A stretch of 64,000 nucleotides of DNA, taken from Candidatus Latescibacterota bacterium (GTDB lineage Bacteria > Latescibacterota > UBA2968). Position 1 is the first letter of the stretch. Every line of letters starts with the position of its first letter. Of this stretch, positions 25,024-44,264 are shown piece after piece. The stretch spans positions 4,384,001 to 4,448,000 of the forward strand of contig OZ240241.1 of the NCBI GenBank assembly GCA_965198115.1, read 5' to 3'. A program made the position numbers and the translations under genes. The notes below the pieces were generated by a model. That model was not told the DNA's origin. It saw only the letters and a program-made list of their open reading frames with translations, and did not search any database.

Positions 25024-25041
25024 ATCTTCCCCTTCTCTAGG

Positions 25042-26712: not shown

Positions 26713-27255
26713 TCAAGCTCCCGCCCTCAGCGCGTTGTGAAGCCGATCGACCATCGATTCGAGTGTGCCATCGAAGACCTGGTCACCAAGCCGTGCGATA
26801 AACCCCGCCTTCAGACTGGGATCGACACTCGTTTCGACACGAACATCTTTTCCGGAATACGTCGACAATTTGGCCTCCAGTTGACCGACTTGTTCATCCG
26901 TCAGCTCGATTGCAGAGGTGACTTCGGCAGTCGCCACGCCACGTCGATCTGCCATCAGAGTCACATAATCGCGCAACATCTCCGTGAGCAGGCGTTCCCT
27001 GCGCTTTTCGCAGAGCAACAACAGAAAGTTGAGCGTCAGGTCCTGTAGTTTGCCCTCGAAAAGTCGCGTGAAGGCGTCCCGCTTTTGTTGCGGGAGGATG
27101 AACGGGTCTTCCGTGTAGCTGACAAAATCATTCGACGCATCCAAGAGCTCGATGAGGCCTTCGACATCGGATTGAACCTCGTCGAGCAGGCCGCGTTCTT
27201 CTGCCGCACTGGCCAGGGCCTCTGTGTAACGTTGGGATACGCCAGTCTGACTCAA
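26713..27255 (-). CDS. atpH: ATP synthase delta subunit
   Basis: RYTEAL, AEVTSAIEL, VDPSLKAGFIARLGDQVFDG. Confidence 0.92.
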   Translation of the reverse strand: MSQTGVSQRYTEALASAAEERGLLDEVQSDVEGLIELLDASNDFVSYTEDPFILPQQKRDAFTRLFEGKLQDLTLNFLLLLCEKRRERLLTEMLRDYVTLMADRRGVATAEVTSAIELTDEQVGQLEAKLSTYSGKDVRVETSVDPSLKAGFIARLGDQVFDGTLESMVDRLHNALRAGA

Positions 27256-27406
27256 ACAATCACTCCGATCTTTGTCTTACAACCAACAAGTAGCGGAATC
27301 GCTTTTCACGCCACCCGGCCGTATCTCAAACGCACTCCCGCTTAGGGCCGACCAACTCATCGGTGGTCCCTCTGTGTGCTCCGTGTCCTCAGTGGTTTCT
27401 TCGTTT

Positions 27407-27901
27407 TCAGTTCGGCGACTCCGGCATACGCGAAATCACATCATCCGCGATCTGCCGGCTTCGGTTTTCGTCGATCTGCTCGTCCAATATCTTTCGCGTG
27501 GCCAGGATGGCCATGTCGGCCACCTCATTCCGCAGTTCCTGGACCGCCTGGTTCTTTTCCTGCTCGATCGTGCGTCGCGCTTGCTCGAGCATCTGTGTGG
27601 CCTCGCCCTCTGCGCGCTCACGCACCTCTTGGGCGACGCGTTCGGCCAGCTCGCGGCCCTCCGCGATGGCGGCCCGAGCTTCTACTTGTGCTTGCTCGAG
27701 CGCTGCCCTGTTCTCATCGGCCTGCTGTTCGGCTTCTTCACGAGCTCTGTCGGCCTGGGCAAGCGCATCGGTGATGCGTTGTTCCCGCTCGTCGAGCATG
27801 GTCAGCAGGGGTTTCCACGCGACCGCCCGGAGCACCACCAACAACAGCAGAAACGTGACGATGGTCCAGATGATGAGACCGGGCTCGATATTCAGTAACA
27901 T
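27407..27901 (-). CDS. atpF: ATP synthase b subunit
   Basis: PGLIIWTIVTFLLLLVVL.AVAWKPLL.MLDERE, followed by coiled coil. Confidence 0.93.
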   Translation of the reverse strand: MLLNIEPGLIIWTIVTFLLLLVVLRAVAWKPLLTMLDEREQRITDALAQADRAREEAEQQADENRAALEQAQVEARAAIAEGRELAERVAQEVRERAEGEATQMLEQARRTIEQEKNQAVQELRNEVADMAILATRKILDEQIDENRSRQIADDVISRMPESPN

Positions 27902-27956
27902 GCCGCTCTCCTGTTAATAATGTCTTCTGTCACCCTGAGGTGACTTCCCTCTCGAC

Positions 27957-28208
27957 TCAACCGCCCTTGGTCGCCAGGAGGAAGCAGACAACCTGCCCGA
28001 ACAGTGCGACACTTTCGATAAAGGCTGCCGTGATAATCATCGAGGTACGGATGTCGTTCGCAGCCTCGGGCTGGCGCGCGGTACCTTCGACCGCCATGCC
28101 GGCCAACCGGCCAATACCCAGACCAGCGCCGATCGTGACAAGTCCTGCACCGATGCCGGCTGAAAGATACCCATATGCTTCGGATGCCAATGCTGCTTCA
28201 GCTGCCAC
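27957..28208 (-). CDS. atpE: ATP synthase c subunit
   Basis: GAGLGIG, ARQPEA, FIESVALF; SD GGAGGTG before GTG. Confidence 0.93.
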   Translation of the reverse strand: MAAEAALASEAYGYLSAGIGAGLVTIGAGLGIGRLAGMAVEGTARQPEAANDIRTSMIITAAFIESVALFGQVVCFLLATKGG

Positions 28209-28359
28209 AGAACACCTCCAGAGAAATGACGAGTTGAAATCTGATCCACGAATGTCGTTTCGGTAAGCCCTCGAGTGCCATCCGCAAACACTCAAAGACA
28301 GGGTTTATCTCCCCCTCTCCCCAACCCCTGCTCCCACTAGGGGTGACCGGGTGGAGTGG

Positions 28360-29175
28360 CTAGTGCTCCTGATGCACCGCCATGCCGATAAACACGGCCG
28401 AAAGCATCGTGAAGATGTAGGCCTGGACGAGTGCCACAAATATTTCAAGCAGATAGATGGCCAGCGAAAACGGAACCGCCACCAGGGCAACCGCGTATGC
28501 CTTGAAGAGGAAAATCAGACCCAACAGGGCGAGAATGATCACGTGTCCAGCCGTCATGTTTGCGAAGAGCCGAATACAGAGCGCAAAGGGTTTGGTCAGA
28601 AGACCGATGATCTCTATCGGGACCATTAATACCGTGATCGGCAGCGGTAGTCCGTGGGGGACCAAACCTTTGAAATAGCCGAAGAATCCATTGTGAATGA
28701 TGCCGCCGATCTGAATTGTCAGGAACGCGCAGATGGCGAGTCCCGCCGTCACACTCACGTTGCCCGTAGGGGTGGCCCCGTAGGGAATCAACCCAAGAAG
28801 ATTGCAGGTTAGAATGAAGAAGAAGATCGTGAGCAGGAACGGCATGAACTTACGATACTCCTGGTCTCCGATATTCGGCTTTGCGATCTCGTCGCGAATA
28901 AAGAGAACGATCGCTTCGAGCATGTTGCCGAAACCGCGGGGGACCAGGCCACGCCCACGGGTGGTCACGAAGAAAGCGACCACCAGGAAGAGGGTGGCGA
29001 TCCACATCATCACCACGTGGCGGGTGATTGAAACGTCGATCCCGAATAGCTCCAGGTGTGGCAGATGAATGTGGCCGAACGGAGCGTGGATGTCCGGCCC
29101 ATCCAGCAGGTGCTCCATGATGTAATCGTTGCCCGCACCGTGTTCAGCAGCGGCCTGTCCTTCTGAAGCCATCAT
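28360..29175 (-). CDS. atpB: ATP synthase a subunit
   Basis: NLLGLIP, TGNVSVT, KPFALCIRLFANMTAGH, QAYIFTMLS. Confidence 0.94.
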   Translation of the reverse strand: MMASEGQAAAEHGAGNDYIMEHLLDGPDIHAPFGHIHLPHLELFGIDVSITRHVVMMWIATLFLVVAFFVTTRGRGLVPRGFGNMLEAIVLFIRDEIAKPNIGDQEYRKFMPFLLTIFFFILTCNLLGLIPYGATPTGNVSVTAGLAICAFLTIQIGGIIHNGFFGYFKGLVPHGLPLPITVLMVPIEIIGLLTKPFALCIRLFANMTAGHVIILALLGLIFLFKAYAVALVAVPFSLAIYLLEIFVALVQAYIFTMLSAVFIGMAVHQEH

Positions 29176-29576
29176 CAAACTCCTTCTACCGAACCGGGTT
29201 GACGGCCGGTCAGAAATCGAATCTCCAGCGTCTGGTAGATGATGTAGAACAGGAAAAGCGACAAACCCAACCCGAGAACCGAAACCTCGGTCAATCTTAC
29301 GATCAGAACGAAAGTCACGCAGATGGCGATCATCCGCAGCGCCATCCCCCCCAGCAGCGTCTTCAAAAAGACGGGTTGCGGCTTGTCGAACGCCCACAAA
29401 GCGGAGGCTCCCCCGATCAGGACGTTCACGGTGCTGATGCCGCATCCAATCGCGGCCGCGAGCAGCACCTCCCTACCCCACCTTGCGTAGACCGGATACG
29501 CCAGTAGAACGAACGCGATACCCAGCGTGATGCCGATCTGCTTGAAGAATTTGCCGATATCTCGCGACGCACTCAC
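29175..29576 (-). CDS. ATP synthase-associated membrane protein (AtpI-like)
   Basis: Four hydrophobic segments; position directly upstream of atpB. Confidence 0.65.
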   Translation of the reverse strand: MSASRDIGKFFKQIGITLGIAFVLLAYPVYARWGREVLLAAAIGCGISTVNVLIGGASALWAFDKPQPVFLKTLLGGMALRMIAICVTFVLIVRLTEVSVLGLGLSLFLFYIIYQTLEIRFLTGRQPGSVEGV

Positions 29577-29845
29577 CGGTCTGCCGTCTCGTCCGTGTCC
29601 CGCTCCTCGCGTGCCCGATCACTTAGACGATTGACCGCTCGCAACAGGTGCCAGGTCGCGGCCCCTGTTCCTACTAGGAGACCGACCAGGGCCAGGATCG
29701 GTTCCGTCCCCACCTTTCCGTCCAACCACCGACCCGCAATGAAGCACAGAATCACCGTCGCGGCAAACTCAATCCCCAATCCCATGTAGGGACCGGCCTT
29801 GCGATACGCTTCACCAGGCCCCGATCCCTTCAGCATCTCCGACAC
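29573..29845 (-). CDS. AtpZ/AtpI family protein
   Basis: YMGLGIEFAATV...GRWLDGKVGTEP; first gene of the atp block. Confidence 0.8.
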   Translation of the reverse strand: MSEMLKGSGPGEAYRKAGPYMGLGIEFAATVILCFIAGRWLDGKVGTEPILALVGLLVGTGAATWHLLRAVNRLSDRAREERDTDETADR

Positions 29846-29885: not shown

Positions 29886-31331
29886 TTAGATCAACGTGGA
29901 AACCGTTTGCTGCGCCATCCTCAGCAGGTTCGTCGGTGCCAGACCGAGGTATAGTGTACCCAGGGATGTCACGATCAGCGCGACTCTGGAGAACGGCGAC
30001 ATCGTGACCTCGTGCGTCTGCCCGACGGGCTGACGCATATACATGCTCACGACCACGCCGAGGTAAAAGTAAACGGAGACCAGGCTGTTGAGGACGCCGA
30101 TGACTGTCAGCCAGATATAGCCCGACTCGACGGCTGCAGAAAAGATCTGAAATTTACCGAAGAAACCGGCCGTCGGGGGAAGTCCCGCCAGCGAGACCAT
30201 AAAGAGCGTCATCGCCAGGCCAAGACCCGGATGACGGAAGCCGAGACCGCTGTAGTTCGTGATCTCGAGGTTCTCGTCACCTTTCCGTCCCAACACCAAA
30301 ACCACCGAAAAAGCCCCGATGTTCATGAGCGTGTACGCGAGGAGGTAGAACAGCCCTCCCGCAACGCCACTCGCACTTGCCGCGACGACTGCCACCAGAA
30401 CGTAGCCGGCGTGCGCGACGCTCGAGTAGGCCAGCATCCGTTTGATGTTTCTCTGGGAGAGGGCGCCCAGGTTGCCCACCGTCATCGTCAGCGCGGCCAG
30501 CATCCAGATCGCCTGTGACCAATCATCGACCAGATCCCCCATCGCGGCGAACAGGACGCGGAAGAAAACGGCGAACGCAGCCGCCTTGGGTCCCGCTGAC
30601 ATGAAAGCCGTGATTGACGTAGGTGCGCCCTGGTAAACGTCGGGCGCCCACATGTGAAACGGAACGGCAGAAACCTTGAAGGCGAAACCGACGATCAACA
30701 GCGCGACGCCGCCGAGCAGCATCAGGTGGCTGTTTACGCGACCTTGTGCGATCGTCAGCTCGATCTCGCGCAGATTCGTCGTCCCCGTTGACCCGTAGAC
30801 GAGGGCGATGCCATAGAGAAGGAATCCCGTCGCAAACGCACCCAGAAGCAGATACTTCAGCGAAGCCTCGTTCGACGACTTCGCCCGCCTGAAGAACCCG
30901 ACGAGGATGTAGAGGGCAAGCGACATCAACTCCAGACCGAGAAAGATCACGACCAGGTCGGCACCGGCCGCCATGAGCATCATCCCCAGGGTCGCCGCCA
31001 GAATCAGGATGTAATACTCGGCCCTGCCTGCCTCTTCACGCGCCAGAAAATCGACGGAAATGAAGATCGTCAGCCCGGTCCCAGCGAGAAACAGCAGGTT
31101 GAAGAAGAGCGCGAAATCGTCCAGAAAAACCATGCCCCCGAATCCAGCAGTCGGGGGCACGTTCCACATACCCAGCGTCACCGCGAAGGCAACGGCCGTC
31201 CCAAGCAGGGCGACATCTCCCGCTCTTTTACCCTTGTTCGCAGGCCAAATGATATCGATGCAGAGAACGAGGAGACAGAGCCCCGCGACGATGAGCATGG
31301 GCGTCAGTACGGTCCAGTTGAAATCAAACAC
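29886..31331 (-). CDS. nuoN: NADH-quinone oxidoreductase subunit N
   Basis: GLELMSLALYIL, SNEASLKYLLLG, FKVSAVPFHMWAPDVYQGAP, KRMLAYSSVAHAGY. Confidence 0.93.
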   Translation of the reverse strand: MFDFNWTVLTPMLIVAGLCLLVLCIDIIWPANKGKRAGDVALLGTAVAFAVTLGMWNVPPTAGFGGMVFLDDFALFFNLLFLAGTGLTIFISVDFLAREEAGRAEYYILILAATLGMMLMAAGADLVVIFLGLELMSLALYILVGFFRRAKSSNEASLKYLLLGAFATGFLLYGIALVYGSTGTTNLREIELTIAQGRVNSHLMLLGGVALLIVGFAFKVSAVPFHMWAPDVYQGAPTSITAFMSAGPKAAAFAVFFRVLFAAMGDLVDDWSQAIWMLAALTMTVGNLGALSQRNIKRMLAYSSVAHAGYVLVAVVAASASGVAGGLFYLLAYTLMNIGAFSVVLVLGRKGDENLEITNYSGLGFRHPGLGLAMTLFMVSLAGLPPTAGFFGKFQIFSAAVESGYIWLTVIGVLNSLVSVYFYLGVVVSMYMRQPVGQTHEVTMSPFSRVALIVTSLGTLYLGLAPTNLLRMAQQTVSTLI

Positions 31332-31352
31332 GGTACTGCTCGAACCGATGGG

Positions 31353-33041
31353 TCACAGGTAGAAAACCAGGTAGGCTACGAGGAAGAGGGTAACAAGCAG
31401 AACAGTCGTCCCCGTCCGCACGGTCCGGGCCAAAACACCCTGCGGACCGTAATGCTGGTGGGCGAATGCGATGATCGAGGCAACCGCTGCCTTGCTGCCT
31501 TTGAAGAAGCCGTCGCTCACGGGTCTACCGACGCTCAGGAACGAGCGAACCGTAGCGGGCAACAGCCGACGATAGGCCCAGTCGACATCGAGGTTCACCG
31601 ATCTCAATTCCGGCGGGTAGATCCCGGAGAGTTTCAAGAAAGCGAAGGCCAAAGCAGAGAAAAAGAGGATCTGCCATTGCTGCACCATATGAGTCAGCGT
31701 GTAGGGCACGTAGTCAACGGGGTAAGGCAACAGCCTGTAAAGGAATTCCGGAAAACAGCCGATCAGGACACAGAGAAGGGCACCCAGCCCCATGGCAACG
31801 CACATGTTGATGGGGGCCTCTTTGCACCGGATGCCAGCGTCGTGAGCGAAGAATGCGAAGAAGGGGATCTTGATACCCGCGTGGTGGAACACACCCGCCG
31901 AGGCGAACAGGAGCATCAGCCAGACGACCACATACCCCTGCTCGGCGGCGATGGTCATCACCATGGATTTGCTCACGAACCCGCTGAAGAAGGGGAAGGC
32001 CGAGATCGATGCGGCCCCCACGATGCAGAACGCGGTCGTCATGGGCATCGACTTGTAAAGCCCGCCTAGGTCGGAGCCGTTGATCCGACCCGTGCGGTGA
32101 AGGACGGCTCCCATGGCCATGAAAAGCAGTCCTTTGAAAAGGACGTCGTTGAAGGCGTGCGCGACGGCCCCGTTTACACCCATGCCCGCACCCAAACCGA
32201 CCCCCGCGACCATGAAACCGATCTGGTTGATCATGCTGTATCCCAGAACACGTCGGAGGTCATTCTCGATCACCGCGAAGAAGATGGGAAACATCGTCAT
32301 CGACGCCCCGATCCAGATCAGTTCTTCTGTCCCCGTAAAACCGCGGGCAAGAGCGTAGACGGCCGTCTTCGTCGTAAATGCGGACAGGAAAACCGTCCCG
32401 GTAGGCGTCGCTTCGGGGTAGGCGTCGACAAGCCACGTATGTAGGACGGGAAAGGCACACTTGATTCCGATGGCCAGAAGAATGAGGCGCGAGGCCCAGC
32501 CTCCCAGTCCCATGTGCTCGAAGGCCAAAGACCCTGTTTCGGAGTAATACAACGCCGTGCCGGCCAACAATAGTAAACCGGAGGTCACGTGTATCAGGAG
32601 ATAACGCATCCCTGCGTCCGCCGATCGCGTGCTTCGGCGAGCCCAGATCTGAAAAACCGACGTGACGGCAAGCAACTCCCAAAAGATAAAGAGGGTGATC
32701 AAGTCTCCCGCGAAAACCGCGCCGACCGCACTCCCGGCGTACATCAACCCCGTTGTGTGCTGGAGACCGTCATTCACGTGTAGGGAATAGATCGCTGCGA
32801 GGAATGCCGCGATGTGGAACAGGTAGCCGAAAAGCAGACTCAGCTTGTCCACGCGCAGGAACTGCAGTTCGTAGCCGGCGAACCACGTCGTCGAGACCGT
32901 GCCGGCCTCGAACCCCAGGAGATTGACGAAGCCGGCTACGGGGAGCACGATGAGCAGGACTTTACGCAGTTGCCCTCGCAAGAGGGGCAGCGCCAGACTG
33001 CCCACGAGCAAAATCGCGGCAGGATGGAGACTACTCGTCAT
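31353..33041 (-). CDS. Na+/H+ antiporter subunit D/A-like (long C-terminal helix)
   Basis: FWELLAVTS, LHTWLVDAYPEAT, LSAFTTKTAVY, RRVLGYS, HAFNDVLFKGLLFM, PPELRSVNLDVDW. Confidence 0.85.
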   Translation of the reverse strand: MTSSLHPAAILLVGSLALPLLRGQLRKVLLIVLPVAGFVNLLGFEAGTVSTTWFAGYELQFLRVDKLSLLFGYLFHIAAFLAAIYSLHVNDGLQHTTGLMYAGSAVGAVFAGDLITLFIFWELLAVTSVFQIWARRSTRSADAGMRYLLIHVTSGLLLLAGTALYYSETGSLAFEHMGLGGWASRLILLAIGIKCAFPVLHTWLVDAYPEATPTGTVFLSAFTTKTAVYALARGFTGTEELIWIGASMTMFPIFFAVIENDLRRVLGYSMINQIGFMVAGVGLGAGMGVNGAVAHAFNDVLFKGLLFMAMGAVLHRTGRINGSDLGGLYKSMPMTTAFCIVGAASISAFPFFSGFVSKSMVMTIAAEQGYVVVWLMLLFASAGVFHHAGIKIPFFAFFAHDAGIRCKEAPINMCVAMGLGALLCVLIGCFPEFLYRLLPYPVDYVPYTLTHMVQQWQILFFSALAFAFLKLSGIYPPELRSVNLDVDWAYRRLLPATVRSFLSVGRPVSDGFFKGSKAAVASIIAFAHQHYGPQGVLARTVRTGTTVLLVTLFLVAYLVFYL

Positions 33042-33339
33042 AATAGTCCTCATCACGCATGAGCACTTTCCGCATCTGCTTGGCCGCAAGCACCAAAATC
33101 ACACAGGCCACCCAACCGTAGACCGCGTAGTAGCCAAACCACGCTTCGGCTGGGAATACACCATCCTTGAAGCTCAAGTGACGGTGGAACACTAGATCCA
33201 ATGCGATCAACACCGCGCAGACGACGAAGAAGATCCGGATCAGTCGTTTCGTATTCTCCGGATCGTCGAAGATGTGCTTCTTCTCCGATTCGTCCGGTTT
33301 TTCCGTACCGGAGGCTGGTTCCATCTCAAGGTTCCCCAA
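33031..33339 (-). CDS. Small two-TM protein of the Mrp cluster
   Basis: IFDDPENTKRL...GYYAVYGWVACVILVLAAK.MRKVLMRDEDYYD; overlaps both neighbours. Start could be 33324. Confidence 0.75.
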   Translation of the reverse strand: MGNLEMEPASGTEKPDESEKKHIFDDPENTKRLIRIFFVVCAVLIALDLVFHRHLSFKDGVFPAEAWFGYYAVYGWVACVILVLAAKQMRKVLMRDEDYYDE

Positions 33340-34786
33340 TGAGGCGGACGAGGCGCAGGAGAGGATCAGAGTAGACGAACAAAGCCAGGCAACCGACGGC
33401 CGTGAACATCAACGGGCCGACGCAGGCCACGGGAGCCTCTTTGATCCCTTTTGGTTCACCCTCTTCTATTGGCAGGAAAAAGGCGTTCACCACGATCGGC
33501 AGCAGGTATGCGATGTTCAGCAAAGAACTGATGACCAACACGATCACCAGAACGAATTGCCCGGCATCCATAGCGCCGAGGAGGAGGTACCATTTGCTCC
33601 ACGCACCGGCGAAAGGCGGCAACCCGATGATACTCAAGGACCCGATCAGAAAGGCGAACATCGTGAACGGCATTTGTCGACCGATGCCCTTCATGTCGCT
33701 GATCTCTGTCTTGTGAGTCGCCACGATGATTGCGCCCGCGCAGAAAAAGAGCGTGATCTTGCCGAACGCGTGCATAGCAATGTGCATGCTTCCACCGACA
33801 ACGCCCCAGCTGTTGGCGAGTGCAGCTCCAAGCACGATGTAGGAAAGCTGGCTGATCGTGGAGTAAGCGAGACGGGCTTTGAGATTGTCCTTCGTGAGCG
33901 CAACAAGCGACGCGATCAGGATCGTCGCCGATGCAGCATACATCAGCCATTCACTCAGACCCGTAGAACTCAGAAGGTCTATGCCGAAGATATACACAAC
34001 GACCTTCATCACCGTAAACACACCGGCCTTCACGACGGCGACCGCGTGTAAGAGAGCGCTCACGGGTGTTGGAGCAACCATGGCCACAGGGAGCCAACGG
34101 TGAAACGGCATCAATGCCGCCTTCCCTGTGCCGAACGCATACAGCGCTAGCAACACGCCGATCACGCCGGTACTGGCCTTGCCCGCCAAAATGCCACCCG
34201 GCATGAAGTCCAGTGTACCGGCCAGGCTCCACGTCCACACGACAGCGAGAAGCAGGAACGTCACCGACGTGCTGATCAGGATTCCCAGGTAGATCCTTCC
34301 GCCCATCCGCGCTTCCTCCGACCGGTGATGCGTGATCAGAGGGTAGGTGGACAGCGTGAGGACCTCGTAAAAGACGAACAACGTCAGCATGTTTCCAGAA
34401 AAGGCGACGCCCAGGGCAGCCGAAATCGCGATCGCAAAAAATACATAGAACCGCGTCTGGTTTTCCTCGTGGTGACCCCTCATATAGCCTATGGAGTAGA
34501 TCGATGTCACGATCCAAAGACCCGAGGCGACAAGGGCGAAGAGCATGCCCAGAGGTTCCACGCGGAATCCGATCGTCAACCCGGGCAAAATGCGAACGAC
34601 TTCAGCGCTCGGCTTTCCTCCCGCGAGCACGTCCGGTACCAGACTTGTCACGATGAGGAACAGGATTCCCCCCGTCACCAGCGTGGCCGCTTCTCTTACG
34701 TTCGGTTGGCGACCGAGCAGGCCGATCACGGGTACGGCCAGCGTGGGCAATGCGATCGCGAGAAGGATCGTGGTGGAGGGACTCAC
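33326..34786 (-). CDS. Monovalent cation/H+ antiporter subunit D family
   Basis: FYEVLTLSTYPL, KAALMPFHRWLPVAMVAPTPVSALLHAVAVVKAG, LKARLAYST. Confidence 0.87.
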   Translation of the reverse strand: MSPSTTILLAIALPTLAVPVIGLLGRQPNVREAATLVTGGILFLIVTSLVPDVLAGGKPSAEVVRILPGLTIGFRVEPLGMLFALVASGLWIVTSIYSIGYMRGHHEENQTRFYVFFAIAISAALGVAFSGNMLTLFVFYEVLTLSTYPLITHHRSEEARMGGRIYLGILISTSVTFLLLAVVWTWSLAGTLDFMPGGILAGKASTGVIGVLLALYAFGTGKAALMPFHRWLPVAMVAPTPVSALLHAVAVVKAGVFTVMKVVVYIFGIDLLSSTGLSEWLMYAASATILIASLVALTKDNLKARLAYSTISQLSYIVLGAALANSWGVVGGSMHIAMHAFGKITLFFCAGAIIVATHKTEISDMKGIGRQMPFTMFAFLIGSLSIIGLPPFAGAWSKWYLLLGAMDAGQFVLVIVLVISSLLNIAYLLPIVVNAFFLPIEEGEPKGIKEAPVACVGPLMFTAVGCLALFVYSDPLLRLVRLIGEP

Positions 34787-36258
34787 GAAGTGACCCCCAT
34801 CAGCGCCTGGGCCGCTTTCCGGGCGACGCCCACCGTCACTGAAGTCGATACACCGAAGTAGATCGTCGCCGCGACGAGCGCCCACGTGGCGAGCTGCATC
34901 ATCATCGGGGCATCCTTCGTTTCAGCTCCCTCAGGCGCTTCCTGGAAATACGCCACCTCCACCACGCGCCAGACGTAGGCGACGGCCAGCAGCGAGGCCA
35001 GGAGGATCAACACGGCCACGGGCCACATTCCGTGTTCCAGCGCCGCCAGCACGAGATACCATTTACTGACGAAGCCCACGGTCAGGGGAACACCGATCAG
35101 ACTCAGCCCGGCCAGTACGAATGCAGCCATCGTCAGCGGCATACGCCGGCCAAGCCCCTTGAAATCTTCCAGGTTCGCCGCGCCCACCTGCAACACGATC
35201 GACCCCACGCAGAGGAAGAGCGCCCCTTTCATCACCCCGTGGTTGAACAGATGCACGATGCCGCCGGTCAACCCCGTCACCGACAGGAAACTAATCCCCA
35301 GCATCATATACCCGATCTGGGCGACGCTCGAATACGCCAGCATGCGCTTAATGTTCGTTTGAAAGATGGCCACGATCGAGCCCACAAAGATCCCGATTAG
35401 GGCCAGCGGAAGCAGCACCGTATCCAGGTGCATCTCGCCGAACGAAAAGTCCGTCCCGAAAATCGTGAACACAAAGCGAAGAAAAACGTAAATCGAAACT
35501 TTGGTCGCCGTCGACGCAATGAATGCGGTCACGACCGAAGGGGCATAGCTGTATGCGTTGGGAAGCCACACGTGGAGCGGAAATAGGGCCAGCTTGAGAC
35601 TCATCCCCACAGTCAAGAACGCGAAGGCGACAATCACCGTCCGATTGATCCCCGCCGTGGCCAGCCGGCCCTGCAGATCGGCCATGTTCAGCGTGCCCGT
35701 CACCGCGTAGATCAGTCCAATACCGATCACAATGAACGTCGCGCCCAGGGTGCCCATCACCAGATACTGGTAGGCAGCGGTCAATGCACGCCTGCCGATC
35801 CCCAGACTGATCAGAACGTATGAGGAAAGAGCCGATATCTCCAGGAAGACGAAGAGATTGAACACATCACCGGTGATGGCCACACCCAGCAGCCCCGTCA
35901 GACACAGGAGATAGGCCGTGTAGAACATGTAGTGCTTCTCGAGCGGAATCTCCTTGGCCAGACTCGCCGGTGCGTAAAACAGCACCACCGTTCCGATGAT
36001 CGAAACCAACAGAATGACGAAACTGTTGATCGTATCGATCCGATACTCGATACCCCACGGCGGCGCCCAGCCACCCAGCTCGTAGGAAATCGTGCCGGTG
36101 GTGAGGACGCGCGACAGCAGTCCCAGAGCCATGTAGAGGACGGTCGCGCTCACGATCAGGGCAAAGCCCCACGACAGAGATCGCCGACGCAGTAGCAGGC
36201 AGACGGGCGCGGAAATCAACGGAATCACGATCTGGAGAATGGGCAGGTGTTCGGACAT
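34783..36258 (-). CDS. mrpD: Monovalent cation/H+ antiporter subunit D
   Basis: GWAPPWGIEYRID, DVFNLFVFLEISALSSY, KLALFPLHVWLPNAY, KRMLAYSSVAQIGY. Confidence 0.88.
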   Translation of the reverse strand: MSEHLPILQIVIPLISAPVCLLLRRRSLSWGFALIVSATVLYMALGLLSRVLTTGTISYELGGWAPPWGIEYRIDTINSFVILLVSIIGTVVLFYAPASLAKEIPLEKHYMFYTAYLLCLTGLLGVAITGDVFNLFVFLEISALSSYVLISLGIGRRALTAAYQYLVMGTLGATFIVIGIGLIYAVTGTLNMADLQGRLATAGINRTVIVAFAFLTVGMSLKLALFPLHVWLPNAYSYAPSVVTAFIASTATKVSIYVFLRFVFTIFGTDFSFGEMHLDTVLLPLALIGIFVGSIVAIFQTNIKRMLAYSSVAQIGYMMLGISFLSVTGLTGGIVHLFNHGVMKGALFLCVGSIVLQVGAANLEDFKGLGRRMPLTMAAFVLAGLSLIGVPLTVGFVSKWYLVLAALEHGMWPVAVLILLASLLAVAYVWRVVEVAYFQEAPEGAETKDAPMMMQLATWALVAATIYFGVSTSVTVGVARKAAQALMGVTS

Positions 36259-36611
36259 CAGACCTCTTCGTCCTGAGCGGCGATCTCGTCTTCTTCGATC
36301 GTCCCGTAGGATTCTCGAATTCGCACGACGAGCGCCAGACCGAGAGCGGTCGTTGCGGCACCCACGACGATTGCTGTAAGGATCAGCACGTGCGGAAGCG
36401 GGTTCGAATACGTCGCGCCGCCATCGACGATGATCGGAGCGGTGCCACCGCGGACTTTGCCGAGCGAGATGTAGAGGAGAAATACAGAACTCTGGAAGAT
36501 GTTCAACCCAATTAGCTTCTTGATTAGATTTCCTCGTGCGATGGCGGTGTAGAATCCCGTCATCATCAAGACGATCACGATCCAGTAGTTATAGAGTCCC
36601 GGCCACTCCAT
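36258..36611 (-). CDS. mrpC: Na+/H+ antiporter subunit C
   Basis: NLIKKLIGL, NPLPHVLILTAIVVG, YGTIEEDEI. Confidence 0.92.
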   Translation of the reverse strand: MEWPGLYNYWIVIVLMMTGFYTAIARGNLIKKLIGLNIFQSSVFLLYISLGKVRGGTAPIIVDGGATYSNPLPHVLILTAIVVGAATTALGLALVVRIRESYGTIEEDEIAAQDEEV

Positions 36612-37030
36612 CAGGTTCGTCCTCGCCCTGCGAAACAGTAGAATATCGAAAGCATCACCGAGGCCACCGTGATGCCGACCCCGAGCTCGACGATCAATAT
36701 CCCCAGATGCTGTCCGTGGACCGGGTCGTGCCCGAGGACGTTGTAGTCGAGGTAGGCCCCCCCATTGATCAGTCCTGCGACACCCGTCCCCGCGTAAATC
36801 AGCACGCCGATTGCGACCAGCGCTTCCACAATCGACGGCTTCGCCACCTTCTGCGTAGCCTCCAGGCCGTAGATGAGCGCGTGAAGGATGAATCCGGCGG
36901 CGAAAATCACGCCTGCCTGGAAGCCGCCGCCCGGCCCGAAGTCGCCGTGGAACTGCACGTAGAGCCCGAACATCAGGATGAATGGGATAAAGACCTTCGC
37001 GACGACGCGGAGGATCGGATTCGAGCTCAC
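36611..37030 (-). CDS. mrpB: Na+/H+ antiporter subunit B
   Basis: HGDFGPGGGFQAG, ELGVGITV. Confidence 0.9.
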   Translation of the reverse strand: MSSNPILRVVAKVFIPFILMFGLYVQFHGDFGPGGGFQAGVIFAAGFILHALIYGLEATQKVAKPSIVEALVAIGVLIYAGTGVAGLINGGAYLDYNVLGHDPVHGQHLGILIVELGVGITVASVMLSIFYCFAGRGRT

Positions 37031-37557
37031 GTCTCCTCCTTCCGTCCGCGCAGCAGAAGAATCACACCCACACCCGCAGTAAAGATCACCACCGTCTCAC
37101 CGAGCGTATCGTATCCCCTGTAGCTCGCCAAAACCGCAGTCACAATGTTGGGAACGCCGATTTCTTCGGGCGAAACGTTGAGGTAATGTGGAGCCACGTG
37201 TTGATGGACGGGTGCGGATGCATCGCCGTAGAGGGGAAGGTCCATCGTGCCGTAGACCAGAACCGCACCGGTCACGATCACGATTAGGAGAGGCAGAATG
37301 GAACGACGCGAAGGCGCTTTCTCATCGCGCGTGGTCAGCCCCAGCGTTCCAAGAAAGAGCACGGTCGACATGCCGGCGCCGACGGCGGCCTCGGTGAACG
37401 CCACGTCGACCGCGTCCAGCACGGTAAAGATGCCTGCTGCCAGGAGACTGAAGATGCCCGCCAACATCACCGATGCGAGTAGGCTTCTTGACCTCGAAAC
37501 GGCGATCGCAATACACACCATCACTGCCAGCAGGACTATGTTGACGACCTCTACCAT
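37027..37557 (-). CDS. Mrp subunit, DUF4040/MnhB-like (MrpA C-terminal equivalent)
   Basis: DAVDVAFTEAAVGAG, PNIVTAVLASYRGYDTLGE. Confidence 0.85.
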   Translation of the reverse strand: MVEVVNIVLLAVMVCIAIAVSRSRSLLASVMLAGIFSLLAAGIFTVLDAVDVAFTEAAVGAGMSTVLFLGTLGLTTRDEKAPSRRSILPLLIVIVTGAVLVYGTMDLPLYGDASAPVHQHVAPHYLNVSPEEIGVPNIVTAVLASYRGYDTLGETVVIFTAGVGVILLLRGRKEET

Positions 37558-37874
37558 TACGCGTCTTTCGTCTCCGAAGTCAGAGGTTGCAACCCCGAGC
37601 GGAAGGCGGCCTTGGCAACGGCGTGCGTGGACGTCGGCGAGGCCAGCAGGGCGATCACGAGAATCGTGATCAGTTTCACCGACACAAGCGATAGACCGCC
37701 CTGCAGCATCAAGCCGATCAGCACGAGGGCAAGACCCAGCGTATCCGTGATGCCGCCCCCGTGCGTGCGGCTGTAGAAATCGGGCAATCGAAGCAGACCG
37801 AGCCCGCCAATCAGACAGAAGAGGGAGCCCAGAACGAGACAGGCCCAGCTGGCGCCGTGAATGAGAGCTTCCAT
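37557..37874 (-). CDS. mrpG: Na+/H+ antiporter subunit G
   Basis: GLLRLPDFYSRTHGGGITDTLG, SPTSTHAVAKAA. Confidence 0.92.
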   Translation of the reverse strand: MEALIHGASWACLVLGSLFCLIGGLGLLRLPDFYSRTHGGGITDTLGLALVLIGLMLQGGLSLVSVKLITILVIALLASPTSTHAVAKAAFRSGLQPLTSETKDA

Positions 37875-38158
37875 CAGGCCGAAGCCTCCGACTCGTCTGC
37901 GACACCGAGATCGCCGCGTTCGATCAACTTGAGGACCGCGATCGTCCCGATGAAGTTCAGCAGGACGTAAATCAGGGCCAGATCCAGGAATTCGGGCCGG
38001 TCCGTCAAAAACCCGAGCACCGCGATCAGCAGGACGGTCTTCGTCCCGAACATGTTGACGGCCAGGATCCGATCGTAGACCGTCGGACCCAGAAGCGCCC
38101 GAGCCAGGGCAAGAATCATCGTGACCAGAACGGCCACCATCGCGACCACGAACATCAT
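37874..38158 (-). CDS. mrpF: Na+/H+ antiporter subunit F
   Basis: RALLGPTVYDRILAVN, LDLALIYVLLNFIGT. Confidence 0.92.
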   Translation of the reverse strand: MMFVVAMVAVLVTMILALARALLGPTVYDRILAVNMFGTKTVLLIAVLGFLTDRPEFLDLALIYVLLNFIGTIAVLKLIERGDLGVADESEASA

Positions 38159-38625
38159 CCGCCGCCCTCCAGACGCGTCACCCGCCGGTCCATGTCGCCT
38201 GTTTCGACGTCGTCAGCCGCCTCCTGCGTCAAGGCGTGAACCACGATCTTGTTTTCATCCATCTCCAAAGACACGGTCCCAGGCGTGAGCGTAATGGAAT
38301 TAGCATAGATCACGCGGCCCAGATCGCTCTTCTGACCGGGTGTTACGTCGATGAGCCTTGGGCTGATGGGCATCCCTGGATTCAGAATCCGGCGGGCCAC
38401 GTCGATGTTCGCCTTGACGATCGCCCACAGCAGCCAGGGCCCATAGGTGAGGAGCCTCAATACCAGATGAATCGGGTGGCCCTCGCGATCGACGATCCCC
38501 ATCCGAGCAGCAATCAGGGCTACGCCCAGGCACGAAATGACCCCGAACCCGATCGTCAGCGACAGGTAAATCCCGGACCAGAGCAACCAGATCGCGAAGA
38601 GCAGAATGGCCAGAGTGATTTTCAC
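38155..38625 (-). CDS. mrpE: Na+/H+ antiporter subunit E
   Basis: WLLWSG, IVKANIDVA, YANSITLTPGT, VHAL. Confidence 0.92.
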   Translation of the reverse strand: MKITLAILLFAIWLLWSGIYLSLTIGFGVISCLGVALIAARMGIVDREGHPIHLVLRLLTYGPWLLWAIVKANIDVARRILNPGMPISPRLIDVTPGQKSDLGRVIYANSITLTPGTVSLEMDENKIVVHALTQEAADDVETGDMDRRVTRLEGGG

Positions 38626-38677
38626 ACAAGTCCCACTACTTGAAGTCCAAAAAATGCGTCAACTTCAGTTAGATCAG

Positions 38678-40255
38678 TCAATTGCGAAAAAAGAATTGCC
38701 GGGGCGCCCCGTCTTTTGTCAAGAGAAAAGGCTCCTCGGACCTCATCGTCACAGCGCGTCCCGCAGCTTTCATCTGTTTGGATTCCACGACCTCGATCAG
38801 GTGACGGCTCGAAACCTCTGTTCGCGACGTGAACGTCTCGGAATGGACACCGATCCAAATCATCAGCACGATCAGAGGGGCAACGACAACCCATTCCCGT
38901 AGCGAAAGATCTGTCAGCTTCGCGTTCGCATCATCCACCTCGCCCCACACCACCCTCTGAAACATCCACAGCATGTAGACGGCCGCCAGGACCACCCCCG
39001 ATGTCGCGATGACACCCATCAGGACGTTGCTCTGGTAGGCACCCAACAGGATCAGGAATTCACCCACGAACCCGTTCAGGCCGGGCAGCCCGATCGAGGA
39101 AAGGATCGTAATCAGAAACACAGCTGAAAACGCCGGCACGACCTGGGCCAATCCCCCGAAATCCTCGATCTCCCGCGTATGCCGCCGCTCGTAGATCATC
39201 CCCACGATCAGGAAGAGCGCGCCCGTCGAGATCCCGTGATTCACCATCTGAATGATCCCGCCCTGCATGCCCTGTTCGTTCATGGCAAAGATACCGAGCA
39301 CGATGAAGCCGAGGTGGCTCACGCTCGAATAGGCCACGAGTTTCTTCACATCAGTCTGGACCATCGCCACGAGTGCGCCATAGACGATCCCGACGACCGA
39401 GAGGACCATGATCGGGTATGTAAACTCGGCCGTGGCCAACGGAAACAGGGGAAGGCAGAACCGAAGGATCCCGTAGGTCCCCATCTTCAACAGAACACCG
39501 GCCAGAATCACACTGCCGGCGGTCGGTGCCTCGACGTGAGCATCTGGCAGCCACGTGTGCAGCGGGAACAACGGCACCTTGATCGCGAAACTCAGGAAAA
39601 ACGCGAGGAAGAGCAGGGACTGGGCTTCGGGATCGACCGTGTACTGGTAGAGCGTCAACAGATCGAACGTATAGACACCCGTCGACGAACCGTGTTGGAA
39701 GTACAGGAAGATGATCGCAACCAACATCAAAAGGCTGCCGGCCAGCGTGAAGAGCACAAACTTGACGGCCGCATAGATCCTGCGTTCCCCACCCCACACC
39801 CCGATCAGCAGATACATCGGGATCAACATCGCTTCCCAGAACACGTAGAACAGGAACAGATCGAGCGAACAGAAAACACCCAGCATGCCCGTCTCGAGCA
39901 ACAGCATCGAAGCCATATACTCGCGAACCCGGGTCGTGACCGACGTCCACGACGCCAGGATGGACAGCACGGTCAAAAGCGTCGTGATCAGGATCAGCAG
40001 CAAGCTGATGCCATCGACGCCCACGGCATAGCTGATCCCCAAATCTTCGACCCACTCGACGCGGTGCACGAACTGCATGTCGGCCGTCGTGGAGTCGAAC
40101 CTCGTGAACAGCGGAATCGTCAACACGAAATTGACGAACGAGACTCCGAGGGCCAGCCAGCGAGATAGGCTGTCGCGCCCCTTGCCGACAAGTACGACCA
40201 GCACCGCGCCCACAAGGGGCACGAAAATCAAATATGTGAGAAGGTGTGAACTCAT
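38678..40255 (-). CDS. nuoM: NADH-quinone oxidoreductase subunit M
   Basis: GVDGIS, FYVFWEAMLIPMY, KVPLFPLHTWLPDAHVEAPT, LKMGTYG, KKLVAYSSVSH. Confidence 0.95.
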   Translation of the reverse strand: MSSHLLTYLIFVPLVGAVLVVLVGKGRDSLSRWLALGVSFVNFVLTIPLFTRFDSTTADMQFVHRVEWVEDLGISYAVGVDGISLLLILITTLLTVLSILASWTSVTTRVREYMASMLLLETGMLGVFCSLDLFLFYVFWEAMLIPMYLLIGVWGGERRIYAAVKFVLFTLAGSLLMLVAIIFLYFQHGSSTGVYTFDLLTLYQYTVDPEAQSLLFLAFFLSFAIKVPLFPLHTWLPDAHVEAPTAGSVILAGVLLKMGTYGILRFCLPLFPLATAEFTYPIMVLSVVGIVYGALVAMVQTDVKKLVAYSSVSHLGFIVLGIFAMNEQGMQGGIIQMVNHGISTGALFLIVGMIYERRHTREIEDFGGLAQVVPAFSAVFLITILSSIGLPGLNGFVGEFLILLGAYQSNVLMGVIATSGVVLAAVYMLWMFQRVVWGEVDDANAKLTDLSLREWVVVAPLIVLMIWIGVHSETFTSRTEVSSRHLIEVVESKQMKAAGRAVTMRSEEPFLLTKDGAPRQFFFRN

Positions 40256-40309: not shown

Positions 40310-42193
40310 TCAGGGCAGGGTCACCGCGTAGATCGTGGCGATCGTGCCGAACAGCATCCAGAGGGCATACGTGGGCGTGCGTCCCGTCTGGAATCTGCCC
40401 GACACCCAGCTGATACCTTTCACGGTATATCCCAACCCATTCGCGACCCCGTCCACGACGATCGTATCGAAGATCGTCCACAACCCCATCGAAAACCGGT
40501 GGATGGGCTGCACAATCGACGCGTGATAGGCTTCGTCCACATACCACTTGTTCCACAGGATCTGGTGCATCGGCTGATCGGACGCGCCACCCAGCTTTCC
40601 GGATCGATGCATCACCAACGCGATCACGAATCCGGCTACGCCCGCCACGATCGAGATCCCGATCAGCACGGACTCGGGCAGGCCGTGCCCCGTTCCGTGT
40701 TCGGGCGCGCCCAGCACGGGTTGCAGGAAATGGTTGATCCATCCGTGCTCGAGTGGATAGCCGGTGATGAAGCCCGCCACCAGGGCACCCGCGGCCAGAA
40801 CGACCAACGGAACCGTCATACTCGATGGCGACTCGTGAGCGTGATCGTGAAGATGCTCGTCGCGTGGCTGTCCGAAGAACGTCATCAGAATCAGTCGGAA
40901 CATGTAGAAGGACGTCATCACCGCTCCGATGACCCCGAGTGCCCACAGCGCCGTATGACCGGGCACTTGTGAATGGTAGGCTCCTGCAAGAATCTGATCC
41001 TTGCTCCAGAAGCCGCTCAGCGGCGGGATCCCGGCGATCGCAACCGTCCCGATGATGAACGTGATGCCCGTAATCTTCATCTTCGAAAGCAACCCGCCGT
41101 ACTTCCGCATATCCAGCTCGTTCGACATGGCGTGCATCACGCTTCCCGCGGCCAGGAACATCAACCCCTTGAAGAATGCGTGCGTGAAGAGATGGAAAAT
41201 TCCCGCCGTATAAGCGCCAACACCCGCACCGATGAACATGTAGCCTAACTGGGAAACCGTCGAATAGGCCAGCACTCGCTTGATGTCGGTGTTCACGAGC
41301 GCGATCGAAGCCGCAAGCAGAGCCGTGAAGACACCGACCCACGCGACGACGGCACCGGCCGTGGGCGACAGCGTGTAAAGAACATTCGAGCGGGCGACGA
41401 CATACACGCCGGCCGTCACCATCGTGGCCGCGTGAATCAGGGCGGAAACCGGTGTGGGCCCTTCCATCGCATCGGGTAGCCACACATAGAGCGGAAACTG
41501 GGCAGATTTCCCACACGCCCCCAGAAAGAGCAGCAGCGCGATCGTCGTGGCCGCCCCGGGGAAGGCCGAGGGGTTGAGGGCTGTTGGCGCTTCGGCGAAG
41601 ACCTCCGTGAACTGGACGGTTCCGACATAGCCGAACAGCATGAAGATCCCGATCAGAAAACCGAAATCCCCGATCCGGTTGACGATAAAGGCCTTCTTGC
41701 CCGCATCCGAAGCAGATCGTCGCTCGAACCAGAACCCGATCAGCAAATAGGAACAGACACCCACACCCTCCCAGCCCACGAACATCAACAGATAGTTGTT
41801 CGCCAGGATCAGAACGAGCATCGAAAACACAAACAGGTTCAGATACGCAAAGAACCTGGCGAATCCCGCGTCGTGGTGCATGTAGCCAAACGAGTAGACG
41901 TGAACGAAAAAGGAAACGGTCGTCACCGTCACCAGCATGATCGCCGACAGCGGATCGACGAGGAACCCCACGGAGGCACTGAACGATCCGGCAGCCACCC
42001 ACGTGTAAACGTTCTCATCGATCCCCGCTCCACTCCTCACATCCATCAGCGTCTTCAACCCGAGCAGCCACGACCCCCCCACGCACCCCGTCGCGATGTA
42101 GCCCGCCGTCTTCTTCAACCAATGGCCGAAGACACCGCAAACGATCGCCCCCAACAGCGGCAGTAGAATAATGATTTCAACAGTCGTGGTCAT
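40310..42193 (-). CDS. nuoL: NADH-quinone oxidoreductase subunit L
   Basis: GWEGVGVCSY, NRIGDFG, KSAQFPLYVWLPDAMEGPTPVSALIHAATMVTAG, HAFFK. Confidence 0.95.
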   Translation of the reverse strand: MTTTVEIIILLPLLGAIVCGVFGHWLKKTAGYIATGCVGGSWLLGLKTLMDVRSGAGIDENVYTWVAAGSFSASVGFLVDPLSAIMLVTVTTVSFFVHVYSFGYMHHDAGFARFFAYLNLFVFSMLVLILANNYLLMFVGWEGVGVCSYLLIGFWFERRSASDAGKKAFIVNRIGDFGFLIGIFMLFGYVGTVQFTEVFAEAPTALNPSAFPGAATTIALLLFLGACGKSAQFPLYVWLPDAMEGPTPVSALIHAATMVTAGVYVVARSNVLYTLSPTAGAVVAWVGVFTALLAASIALVNTDIKRVLAYSTVSQLGYMFIGAGVGAYTAGIFHLFTHAFFKGLMFLAAGSVMHAMSNELDMRKYGGLLSKMKITGITFIIGTVAIAGIPPLSGFWSKDQILAGAYHSQVPGHTALWALGVIGAVMTSFYMFRLILMTFFGQPRDEHLHDHAHESPSSMTVPLVVLAAGALVAGFITGYPLEHGWINHFLQPVLGAPEHGTGHGLPESVLIGISIVAGVAGFVIALVMHRSGKLGGASDQPMHQILWNKWYVDEAYHASIVQPIHRFSMGLWTIFDTIVVDGVANGLGYTVKGISWVSGRFQTGRTPTYALWMLFGTIATIYAVTLP

Positions 42194-42293
42194 AGATCAA
42201 CCAAATGCTATTCACCGGTCTTCCACCAGAGTTCCGATCCACACCCCATCTTCTCCCGAGTCGGGCATCCTACGCCCAGATCCACCTCTAATT

Positions 42294-42367
42294 CTCCGTG
42301 TCCTCAGCCTGCCCTGAGTAGCCTGCGAAGCAGGCGTATCGAAGGGTGTCCTCAGTGGTTCGTCTTG
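42294..42367. repeat. Composite repeat: REP-like hairpin flanked by a 10-bp direct repeat GTGTCCTCAG
   Basis: GTGTCCTCAG at 42298-42307 and 42346-42355 brackets CCTGCCCTGAGTAGCCTGCGAAGCAGGCGTATCGAAGG. Confidence 0.7.
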
Positions 42368-42369
42368 CT

Positions 42370-42675
42370 TTACCATTTCAACAAATTGACCTCCGCCACA
42401 TCCACCGTCTCGCTGTTGCGGAAGAGCGCAATAATGATGGCCAGACCGACAGCCACCTCAGCCGCGGCGACGGCCATTACGAAGAACACGAACACCTGAC
42501 CATCTGCCTGACCCAAGTGCCTCGCGAACGCCACGAAAGCCAGGTTGACGGCGTTCAACATCAGCTCGATGCACATGAAAATGACGATCGCATTCCGACG
42601 CGTCAGAACCCCTGCGACGCCGATCGAAAACAGGATCGCGCTCAGTATCAGGTAGTTGGAAGTCGCGACTCCCAT
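42370..42675 (-). CDS. nuoK: NADH-quinone oxidoreductase subunit K
   Basis: [27 protein letters not shown]. Confidence 0.95.
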
Positions 42676-42678
42676 CGG

Positions 42679-43188
42679 TCAGGACACCTGTGTGGCTTCG
42701 CGTTTGACCAGCACAACGACGCCGATCAGCGCGACGAGCAGGATGAGCGAAGCGACCTCGAACGGGAACAGGAAATCCGTGTAGAGCAGTTTACCGATAG
42801 TCGGGACGTTCTCTGTCAACAGAGCTTCATTCTCGGCCGGGGGTCCGAGTTGTCGTGCGCCCATCGCGCCGAGATGGGCGACAAGGAGCGCACACAGAAA
42901 GAGGATGGCCGTTCCACGATATCGACTCGTCATAGGCTCGAGTGTTTCAGGGTGACCCAGGTTCAGGAGCATGATGACGAACAGGAAGAGCACCATCACG
43001 GCGCCCGCGTAGACGATGATCTGCACGGCCGCGAGAAAATAGGCGTTCAGCAACACAAAAAGCCCTGCCACCGCGAAGAGCGTCGCGACAAGAGACAGGG
43101 CGCTGTAGACCGGATTTCGGAATAGGACGAGGAGCACGGCGGACGCAACCGCAACGGTTGCGAGCACGTAAAAGGCCGCAGTCTCCAT
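42679..43188 (-). CDS. nuoJ: NADH-quinone oxidoreductase subunit J
   Basis: NPVYSALSL, QIIVYAGAVMVLFLFVIMLL, PFEVASLILL. Confidence 0.94.
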   Translation of the reverse strand: METAAFYVLATVAVASAVLLVLFRNPVYSALSLVATLFAVAGLFVLLNAYFLAAVQIIVYAGAVMVLFLFVIMLLNLGHPETLEPMTSRYRGTAILFLCALLVAHLGAMGARQLGPPAENEALLTENVPTIGKLLYTDFLFPFEVASLILLVALIGVVVLVKREATQVS

Positions 43189-43224
43189 CTCCCCCCCTTA
43201 GGAATCGACGGCGTCGTCGAAAAG

Positions 43225-44262
43225 CTACCGGTTCAGCGTCAGATAAAGACCGGTCAGGAACACGTTCAACAAGGCAAGCGGCAGCAGATACTTCCACCCC
43301 AGACGCATGACTTGATCATACCGGAAGCGTGGTACCGTCCACCTTACCCAAATGAACAGGAACAGGAAGAAAGCTGTCTTCGCCGCGAAAACCAGCACCT
43401 TCAAAAGGCTCAGGGCGAAGGAAGCGTCCTTCGGGTCGACACCCGGCAAATGCCACCCGCCGAAGAACAACGTTGCGATCAAGGCCGATGCCGTAATCAT
43501 GTGGGCGTATTCGGCCATGAAGAACATCGCGAATTTCATGCTGCTGTATTCGGCGTGATAGCCGGCGACGAGCTCTTGCTCGGCCTCGGGCAGGTCGAAC
43601 GGAAGCCGGTTCGTCTCGGCAAACACAGAAACCATGAACACCAGACAGGCAATCGGTTGCGTAAACACGAACCAGGCGGGCAGAACACCCAGAATCGTTC
43701 CGTTCGCCTGCAGGTTCACCACGTCCGAAAGCTTAAGCGATCCTGCGACCATCAGAACGCCGATCAGGGAGAGACCGAGCGAAAGTTCGTAGCTGATCAT
43801 CTGCGCCGACGCCCGAACGGCGCCCATCAGGGCGTACTTGTTGTTCGAGGCCCAGCCACCCAGCACCACACCGTAGACACCGAGTGAACTCACGGCTAGG
43901 ACGTAGAGAATTCCGATATCCGCGTCCGAAATGATCAGTTGGACTTCGTGCCCGAGCACCATCAGCGTGTCGCCGAACGGCACTACGGCGAACCCCATCA
44001 ACGCCGGAACCAGAATCACCGCCGGCGCGATCAGGTAGATCGCCTTGTTCACGTGGTTGGGGATGACGTCTTCTTTGAGGATGAACTTGAGGCCGTCGGC
44101 CAGCGGTTGTAGGAGACCCCACGGTCCGACGCGATTCGGACCCAAACGATTCTGGATGTAGGCGCTTACCTTGCGTTCGGCCAGAACCACATACGCGACC
44201 GTCGTAATGATGACACCCAGGACGATCGCGATCTTGATCAGACTCTCGAGCGCGTAATCCAT
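43225..44262 (-). CDS. nuoH: NADH-quinone oxidoreductase subunit H
   Basis: [52 protein letters not shown]. Confidence 0.96.
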
Positions 44263-44264
44263 CT

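Follow-up and report, generated by a model that had tools for sequence, protein, structure and literature searches.

A predicted group 3 Mrp antiporter encoded in an exchangeable slot between nuoM and nuoN of a Latescibacterota complex I operon

We analysed 64,000 nucleotides from a Candidatus Latescibacterota bacterium (assembly GCA_965198115.1, contig OZ240241.1, forward-strand positions 4,384,001 to 4,448,000; this whole stretch is called the window, and coordinates are its own). In it, the normally adjacent genes nuoM and nuoN of a complex I (nuo) operon are separated by ten genes that appear to encode a complete, self-contained group 3 Mrp (CPA3) cation/H+ antiporter with three pump subunits. 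An earlier reading made from the letters only (the sequence-only reading) had left the choice between co-regulated separate complexes and a complex I-Mrp hybrid. We favor the first, putting at roughly 80% the probability that the antiporter assembles apart from complex I, the two being separate, co-expressed complexes. Four observations carry this view: (i) in relatives the same slot is filled by a different transporter or is empty; (ii) the clamp helices are unextended; (iii) both sets of small membrane subunits are encoded and (iv) the same Mrp occurs free-standing. Group 3 Mrps (PMC8415708, PMC5703873) and the green and 2M forms of complex I (PMC9040806) are known from these accounts; what appears to be new here is a full Mrp in an exchangeable nuoM-nuoN slot.

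The mrp block

The ten genes are intact, lie on the minus strand and overlap or abut one another (spacing of -11 to +1 nt), with gaps of 52 nt between nuoM and mrpE, 21 nt between mrpD3 and nuoN, and 49 nt from nuoN to the F1Fo atp genes directly downstream. The whole run reads nuoA B CD E F G H J K L M, mrp, nuoN, atp. The block and its two junction gaps were thus as first described; the range then given to it, 29886..40255, takes in nuoN and nuoM, which are real flanks, and the insert proper covers 31353-38625. In the order of transcription the features are:

50614..50642, minus: sigma-70-type promoter site, 12/12, 17-nt spacer, 116 nt before nuoA
40310..50498, minus: nuoA, B, CD, E, F, G, H, J, K and L, without nuoI (profile matches)
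38678..40255, minus: nuoM, 525 amino acids (aa), 5' flank of the slot (TIGR01972, 652 bits, above the NCBIfam cut-off)
38155..38625, minus: mrpE (PF01899)
37874..38158, minus: mrpF (PF04066)
37557..37874, minus: mrpG (PF03334)
37027..37557, minus: DUF4040 protein, MbhD plus MbhE, that is, the detached MrpA C-terminal domain (PF13244, PF20501)
36611..37030, minus: mrpB (PF04039; NF009162, above cut-off)
36258..36611, minus: mrpC, NuoK homologue (NF005624, above cut-off)
34783..36258, minus: mrpD1, 491 aa, antiporter-like subunit
33326..34786, minus: mrpD2, 486 aa, antiporter-like subunit
33031..33324, minus: small two-helix membrane protein without a known family
31353..33041, minus: mrpD3, 562 aa, MrpA-N/NuoL-like, with its own clamp helix (NF009310, above cut-off)
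29886..31331, minus: nuoN, 481 aa, 3' flank of the slot (TIGR01770, 464 bits, above the NCBIfam cut-off)
22625..29836, minus: atp genes (atpZ/I-like, atpI, B, E, F, H, A, G, D)

Two trivial explanations for the arrangement were rejected. Misassembly is ruled out by contigs of two public sequencing runs (X1 and X2, which represent one sample, possibly the source sample; X3 covers fragments only) that span both junctions with 0 differences, and by the same gene order in 16 other genomes. Nor does the block look like a recent, lineage-specific foreign insertion, the case that the sequence-only reading had set against itself: the arrangement is present in both families of the order, GC content at third codon positions (GC3) is 0.755 in mrp vs 0.751 in nuo, and the front half of the Mrp groups with Mrps of its own family.

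Homologues of MrpB, C, D, E, F and G and of the MrpA C-terminal domain are all present. Group 3 is defined in PMC8415708 by the lack of a full-length mrpA together with one or more mrpD genes; here there are three MrpD-like genes (486-562 aa) and the MrpA C-domain is on a gene of its own. The block further shares with the group 3 Mrps of Pyrococcus (mrpEFGBB'CD) and Aphanothece (mrpCD1D2EFGAB), as presented in PMC8415708 and PMC5703873, the E F G B B' C D order, several MrpD copies and conserved pump residues. Unlike them, it has three pumps, a small protein with two transmembrane (TM) helices, a clamp helix of NuoL length, an Asn at MrpF Asp35, and a location inside nuo. The operon encodes six antiporter-like subunits, as had been counted, and each keeps the TM5 Glu, TM7 Lys, TM8 Lys/His and TM12 Lys/Glu. 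The best matches of D3, MrpC and the DUF4040 protein in the PDB were MBS/MBH subunits, and no solved Mrp with three pumps was among the PDB matches. The small two-helix gene also accompanies D2-D3 where the Mrp cluster stands alone and where a complex I operon is of the green type, and is therefore no linker specific to this operon.

The cation path of the Anoxybacillus Mrp, in its own numbering, is described as running through MrpA-C E706/D792/E796, MrpF D29/D35 and MrpC H37/H40 (PMC7419157). The three essential MrpA-C carboxylates are kept in the DUF4040 protein (motifs in 41 and 42 of 44 sequences) and MrpF keeps D29; D35, the second Asp of solved MrpF/MbhB, is replaced by Asn and the MrpC His pair is absent, deviations also present in relatives. 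Given this mixture of kept and lost residues, the exported cation is likely to be Na+, with K+ possible.

Occupants of the slot among relatives

The nuoN of this operon is found in 28 of 132 genomes of the class (E <= 1e-120), all of which were inspected; as relatives are kin and non-independent, the occupancy counts are patterns, not statistics. The slot between nuoM and nuoN holds Mrp in 17 (the window genome G000, G029 and 15 genomes of genus g7), a CitMHS_2 gene (PF16980) in seven (G001 from the window's own genus, G007, G026, G036, G044, G045 and G046) and nothing in four (G010, G041-G043). The G046 contig covers just the nuoN side of the slot, and G007 and G046 are only 80-84% complete; in G049 and G005 the nuoM-mrpE junction is visible before the contig ends. 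None of the 28 holds both Mrp and CitMHS_2 in the slot, and no gene other than these antiporter-annotated occupants was found there. CitMHS_2, about 490 codons long and present once per slot, occurs in 7 of the 132 genomes and always in the slot. MrpD1 or MrpD2 was found in 0 of these seven; MrpD2 is present in 104 of the 132 overall. In the wider phylum, 1 of 36 genomes matched MrpD1, in a different gene order. The gap between mrpD3 and nuoN is a constant 184-190 nt in the g7 genomes (L023-L026, L074-L084) vs 21 nt in the window, leaving room for a regulatory element.

What, then, is CitMHS_2? Pfam labels PF16980 a putative citrate transporter, and for homologues that carry a name, NCBI uses sodium:proton antiporter and JGI NhaD/arsenite permease-like. 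An alignment-based structural model (predicted local distance difference test score, pLDDT, 90.6) matches elevator transporters of the IT superfamily (Pho90, NaDC/NaCT, VcINDY and ArsB); on the strength of the model, the protein is a single chain of IT-superfamily fold, and it is the fold that is assigned, not the substrate. By sequence there was no PDB match and no match to the NhaD model TIGR00775.

There may be precedent for an antiporter gene at this position. Rhodothermus marinus is said (in a 2005 report by Melo and colleagues) to carry nhaD/NhaE in its nqoB operon, co-transcribed, between nqo13 (nuoM) and nqo14 (nuoN), which, if that position is right, is likewise a Na+/H+ antiporter gene within the membrane-arm genes of complex I. 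NhaE is an assayed IT-family antiporter (PMC9408914) and thus, like the CitMHS_2 occupant in relatives, an IT-superfamily protein; CitMHS_2 may belong to the NhaE family. What sets the present case apart from R. marinus is a ten-gene Mrp that alternates with a single gene among sister lineages, and atp genes directly after. Our literature search turned up no account of an Mrp between nuoM and nuoN, though a mention in print is possible.

It might be argued that the position is a by-product, in that antiporter cassettes happened to insert into a highly expressed operon and recombination between the conserved flanking genes nuoM and nuoN then exchanged them, without any selection for co-regulation. 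The slot is empty in four genomes, the same Mrp is solitary in many relatives, and an nhaA gene has landed comparably inside the mrp cluster of G013 and G023, between mrpG and the DUF4040 gene (L196, G013:C2:680987-682228; L197, G023:C1:4577504-4578745). We nevertheless consider this very unlikely: both occupants are annotated cation/H+ antiporters, with no unrelated gene in the slot across the 28 genomes, and CitMHS_2 lies within about 2 kb after nuoN in 5 of 75 loci from other lineages (80 loci were fetched, 5 of them from class relatives).

Separate complexes or one machine

Whether the extra pumps could sit in complex I itself can be judged in part from the clamp helix HL, in which, according to PMC9040806, the addition of a pump is accompanied by an insertion of about 26 residues. 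Our ruler, the residue count between the conserved Asp and the last helix, gave 56 for NuoL and 60 for MrpD3 in the window. NuoL measured 55-56 in all 28 genomes examined, whatever the slot held (18 Mrp, 6 CitMHS_2, 4 empty), and MrpD3 measured 58-60 in the slot (17 clusters) and 55-67 outside it (26 free-standing clusters). An in-class control is provided by three green-type operons in which mrpD2, the small TM gene and mrpD3 stand in place of nuoL (G056, G057, G116): here the D3 helix has 82 residues (2 of 2 measured). Set against this control, each arm encoded in the window is therefore sized for three pumps. The green-type loci belong to family f4 (L107 in G116, L108 in G057, L198 in G056) and are ordered nuoK-mrpD2-smallTM-mrpD3-nuoM-nuoN. 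The ruler is informative in one direction only, as is evident from a second, 11-subunit complex I operon of the window genome, at 3.42-3.43 Mb and with its own nuoI. Its NuoL (G000:C1:3423036-3425111; L202:9037-11112) has a clamp helix about 26 residues longer beside one nuoM. This second NuoL measures 81-82 in 12 of 12 relatives examined and has the long helix in G041 too. The CitMHS_2 genomes without Mrp that were examined (4 of 4) show the same length, which is therefore no pointer to borrowed Mrp subunits; two NuoM copies or a surplus brace are both possible explanations.

The gene content points the same way. NuoK has a homologue in MrpC and NuoJ one in the MrpA C-domain (PMC7419157), and the operon encodes both sets: nuoA, H, J and K beside mrpB, C, DUF4040, E, F and G. 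In Pyrococcus MBH and MBS, a redox module and an Mrp-type Na+ module are likewise encoded together, with, in the accounts of PMC7419157 and PMC8415708, a single membrane arm and no NuoA/J/K; the window, in which Mrp small subunits do not replace NuoA/J/K, encodes two complete arms. Green complex I, 2M and the Manganitrophaceae Complex_I_3 likewise have extra antiporter-like genes in the nuo operon, with MrpD2/D3-type subunits beside nuoM and nuoN; as PMC9040806 describes them, NuoL is replaced or a NuoM added, without mrpE/F/G/B/C/D1 in the operon, and in 2M, Complex_I_3 and the green-type operons measured here the clamp helix is about 26 residues longer. Unlike these, the window keeps an intact NuoL of unextended length and one nuoM, and carries the full Na+ module.

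For these reasons we regard as extremely improbable a single hybrid, either an elongated one with a row of four to six pumps or one in which the Nuo redox arm drives the Mrp Na+ module in the manner of Mbh/Mbs. The idea has some appeal in that nuoN is displaced to behind the mrp genes, true hybrids are known (green complex I and Complex_I_3; PMC9040806), and the second NuoL has a helix of four-pump length with no fourth pump gene. However, NuoL and D3 of the present operon are both unextended, NuoA/J/K/H and MrpB/C/DUF4040 would compete for one site, CitMHS_2 or nothing occupies the same slot in relatives, and the long second NuoL is found with or without Mrp. The hybrid half of the sequence-only reading is therefore not supported, and the separate, co-regulated half is. 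Its further suggestion, that proton motive force is converted to sodium motive force, is plausible by way of the membrane gradient and not through one fused machine.

A looser association, with neither arm lengthened, is harder to judge. Nuo and Mrp might sit side by side in a supercomplex, or form chimeric three-pump arms (D3 in the place of NuoL, for example, or NuoL on D2-D1-MrpC), and so couple NADH oxidation locally or directly to Na+ export. Consistent with this, 17 genomes from two families have kept the Mrp within the membrane-arm genes, NuoL and D3 have clamp helices of near-equal length (56 vs 60), and D2-smallTM-D3 does substitute for NuoL in the three green-type operons. Against it, other genomes have an unrelated single-chain transporter in the slot or leave it empty, the window's D2-D3 fall in the trees with the D2-D3 of a free-standing Mrp, and 0 of 2206 Nuo columns were convergent in three Mrp lineages (controls 0, 1 and 0; a test of low power). 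We judge an association of this kind distinctly unlikely.

Several observations weigh against separate assembly and the antiport circuit proposed below. The cation-site residues depart from those of solved Mrps (MrpF Asp35 as Asn, both MrpC His missing). Green-type operons in this class do combine D2/D3-type subunits with NuoM/N, which means that contacts of this sort are feasible, and the second NuoL has its long helix (82) in an operon that encodes only L, M and N. Antiport by CitMHS_2 is a matter of annotation, and four genomes have an empty slot, which is therefore not essential. Na+ has further routes in the window genome, namely two NhaC-family genes, a decarboxylase beta subunit and a membrane pyrophosphatase. 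Finally, co-transcription, separate assembly, the ion and the direction of transport are all things that we infer.

Transcription

A single nuo-mrp-atp transcript from a promoter before nuoA is likely, because one perfect promoter site heads the run and no other minus-strand sigma-70-type site was found in 21500-52000. The 12/12 site is kept in G001, where the spacer has diverged; BLAST did not detect it in 4 other relatives. Terminator-like sites between 28500 and 48000 (26 vs 19.0 +/- 5.0 in shuffles, 0 in either junction gap) were uninformative, and Rfam gave 0 matches in the window.

Evolutionary history of the slot

In a tree of NuoHJKLMN (17 rows, LG+G4; built without G046, G005 and 11 of the 15 g7 genomes), the content of the slot differs between sisters in three cases (G000/G001, G029+G049/G044 and g7/G045). 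Five occupant changes, in either direction, are required, and monophyly was rejected both for the Mrp-slot genomes (approximately unbiased test, p-AU 7e-71) and for the CitMHS_2-slot genomes (p-AU 3e-8). Trees of the Mrp itself (19 rows, with 4 of the 15 g7 genomes included and the long-branch G010 removed) likewise rejected a clade of in-slot Mrps, at p-AU 0.009 for E-F-G-B-C-D1 and 3e-67 for D2-D3. The front half of the window's Mrp groups with the Mrps of its own family (93/95, not starred), and its D2-D3 with the free-standing Mrp of G065, an Nqr genome (100/99). Derivation of the whole cassette from family f4 was rejected, since it fits D2-D3 only.

The gene nqrF is present in 90 of the 132 class genomes and in 0 of the 28 with this nuoN, and in Nqr genomes the same Mrp is free-standing, apart from this complex I. 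In G009 (L027) the order is nqrA-F, apbE, mrp, atp, with nqr and apbE in the position that nuo has in the window; nqr also lies near mrp in G008, G015, G018 and G023. Among 20 further loci (19 from family f4), 17 had mrp without nuo, nqr or atp in the fetched stretch. One could imagine that the transcript builds a physical module, in which complex I and the three-pump Mrp, their clamp helices equal in length, dock side by side or exchange pumps for NADH-driven Na+ export, and the pair would then serve as a two-part substitute for Nqr, excluding Nqr across the class. We think this unlikely.

Proposed energetics

A plausible scenario, on the reading that the complexes are separate, is that one long transcript yields three machines. 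Complex I (an L-M-N arm, with nuoI supplied from elsewhere) would pump H+, and an ATP synthase of predicted H+ type would consume the gradient. The Mrp, with a predicted arm D3-D2-D1-C-DUF4040-B-F-G-E, would admit H+ and export Na+ (or K+), perhaps at up to 3 H+ per cation if one extrapolates from the two-pump model with one proton per pump subunit presented in PMC7419157. Antiport capacity would then scale with respiration, keeping cytoplasmic Na+ low and supplying the drive for Na+/solute symporters, of which the window genome has 11 genes. In the Nqr lineages the same Mrp, in some beside nqr and atp, may run in the reverse direction.

The Na+-binding c subunits of ATP synthases carry a Gln, Thr, Tyr motif. 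Here the c subunit has Ile at the Gln position and lacks the Thr and Tyr, and we therefore predict that the circuit runs on H+; a Na+-type ATP synthase was discarded as partner on the same grounds. In this subunit (27957-28187) the essential Glu is followed by Ser; in 27 of 28 aligned relatives Gly follows, the exception being a swapped gene in G040. In G040 (L201/L083) the genes after nuoN are distant atpB, E and F (30-43% identity; c subunit with Gln), with atpH, A, G and D native.

Models for CPA, NhaA, NhaB, NhaD, Nqr and Rnf matched nothing in the window genome. In the CitMHS_2 genome G036 (97% complete) there was no CPA, NhaA, NhaD, NhaC or Mrp match; CPA genes are present in three other CitMHS_2 genomes.

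Dispersed complex I genes and neighbours

The nuoI missing from the operon is solitary at G000:C1:1656205-1656705, with RNase Y on one side and queG/miaB/lipA on the other. The genome has a second nuoB (3437145-3437693, 90% identical) in a suf cluster, after an Rrf2 regulator, and G036, G044, G041 and G042 have a nuo operon without any nuoB. Also in the window are a beta-lactamase/serine-hydrolase gene (PF00144; 59904-61089, plus strand) that appears as two overlapping open reading frames in different frames, an extracytoplasmic function (ECF)-type sigma factor fused to HEAT repeats and DUF2087 (53418-55427, minus strand), and sdhA/sdhB (61264-63994, minus strand), about 11 kb upstream of nuoA and on the same strand.

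Significance

The slot amounts to a natural swap experiment, in that a ten-gene Mrp and a one-gene CitMHS_2 alternate at one position in sister lineages. This speaks for a pairing of complex I with 'an antiporter' through co-expression, and it points to Na+/H+ antiport as the function of PF16980. Na+ has effects on some complex I enzymes, for which a co-expressed antiporter may be an answer that calls for no Na+-pumping complex I. As a caution, extra nuoL/M/N-like genes in a nuo operon need not mean a longer complex I. A three-pump Mrp is an unsolved architecture and would test whether the H+/Na+ ratio scales with pump number.

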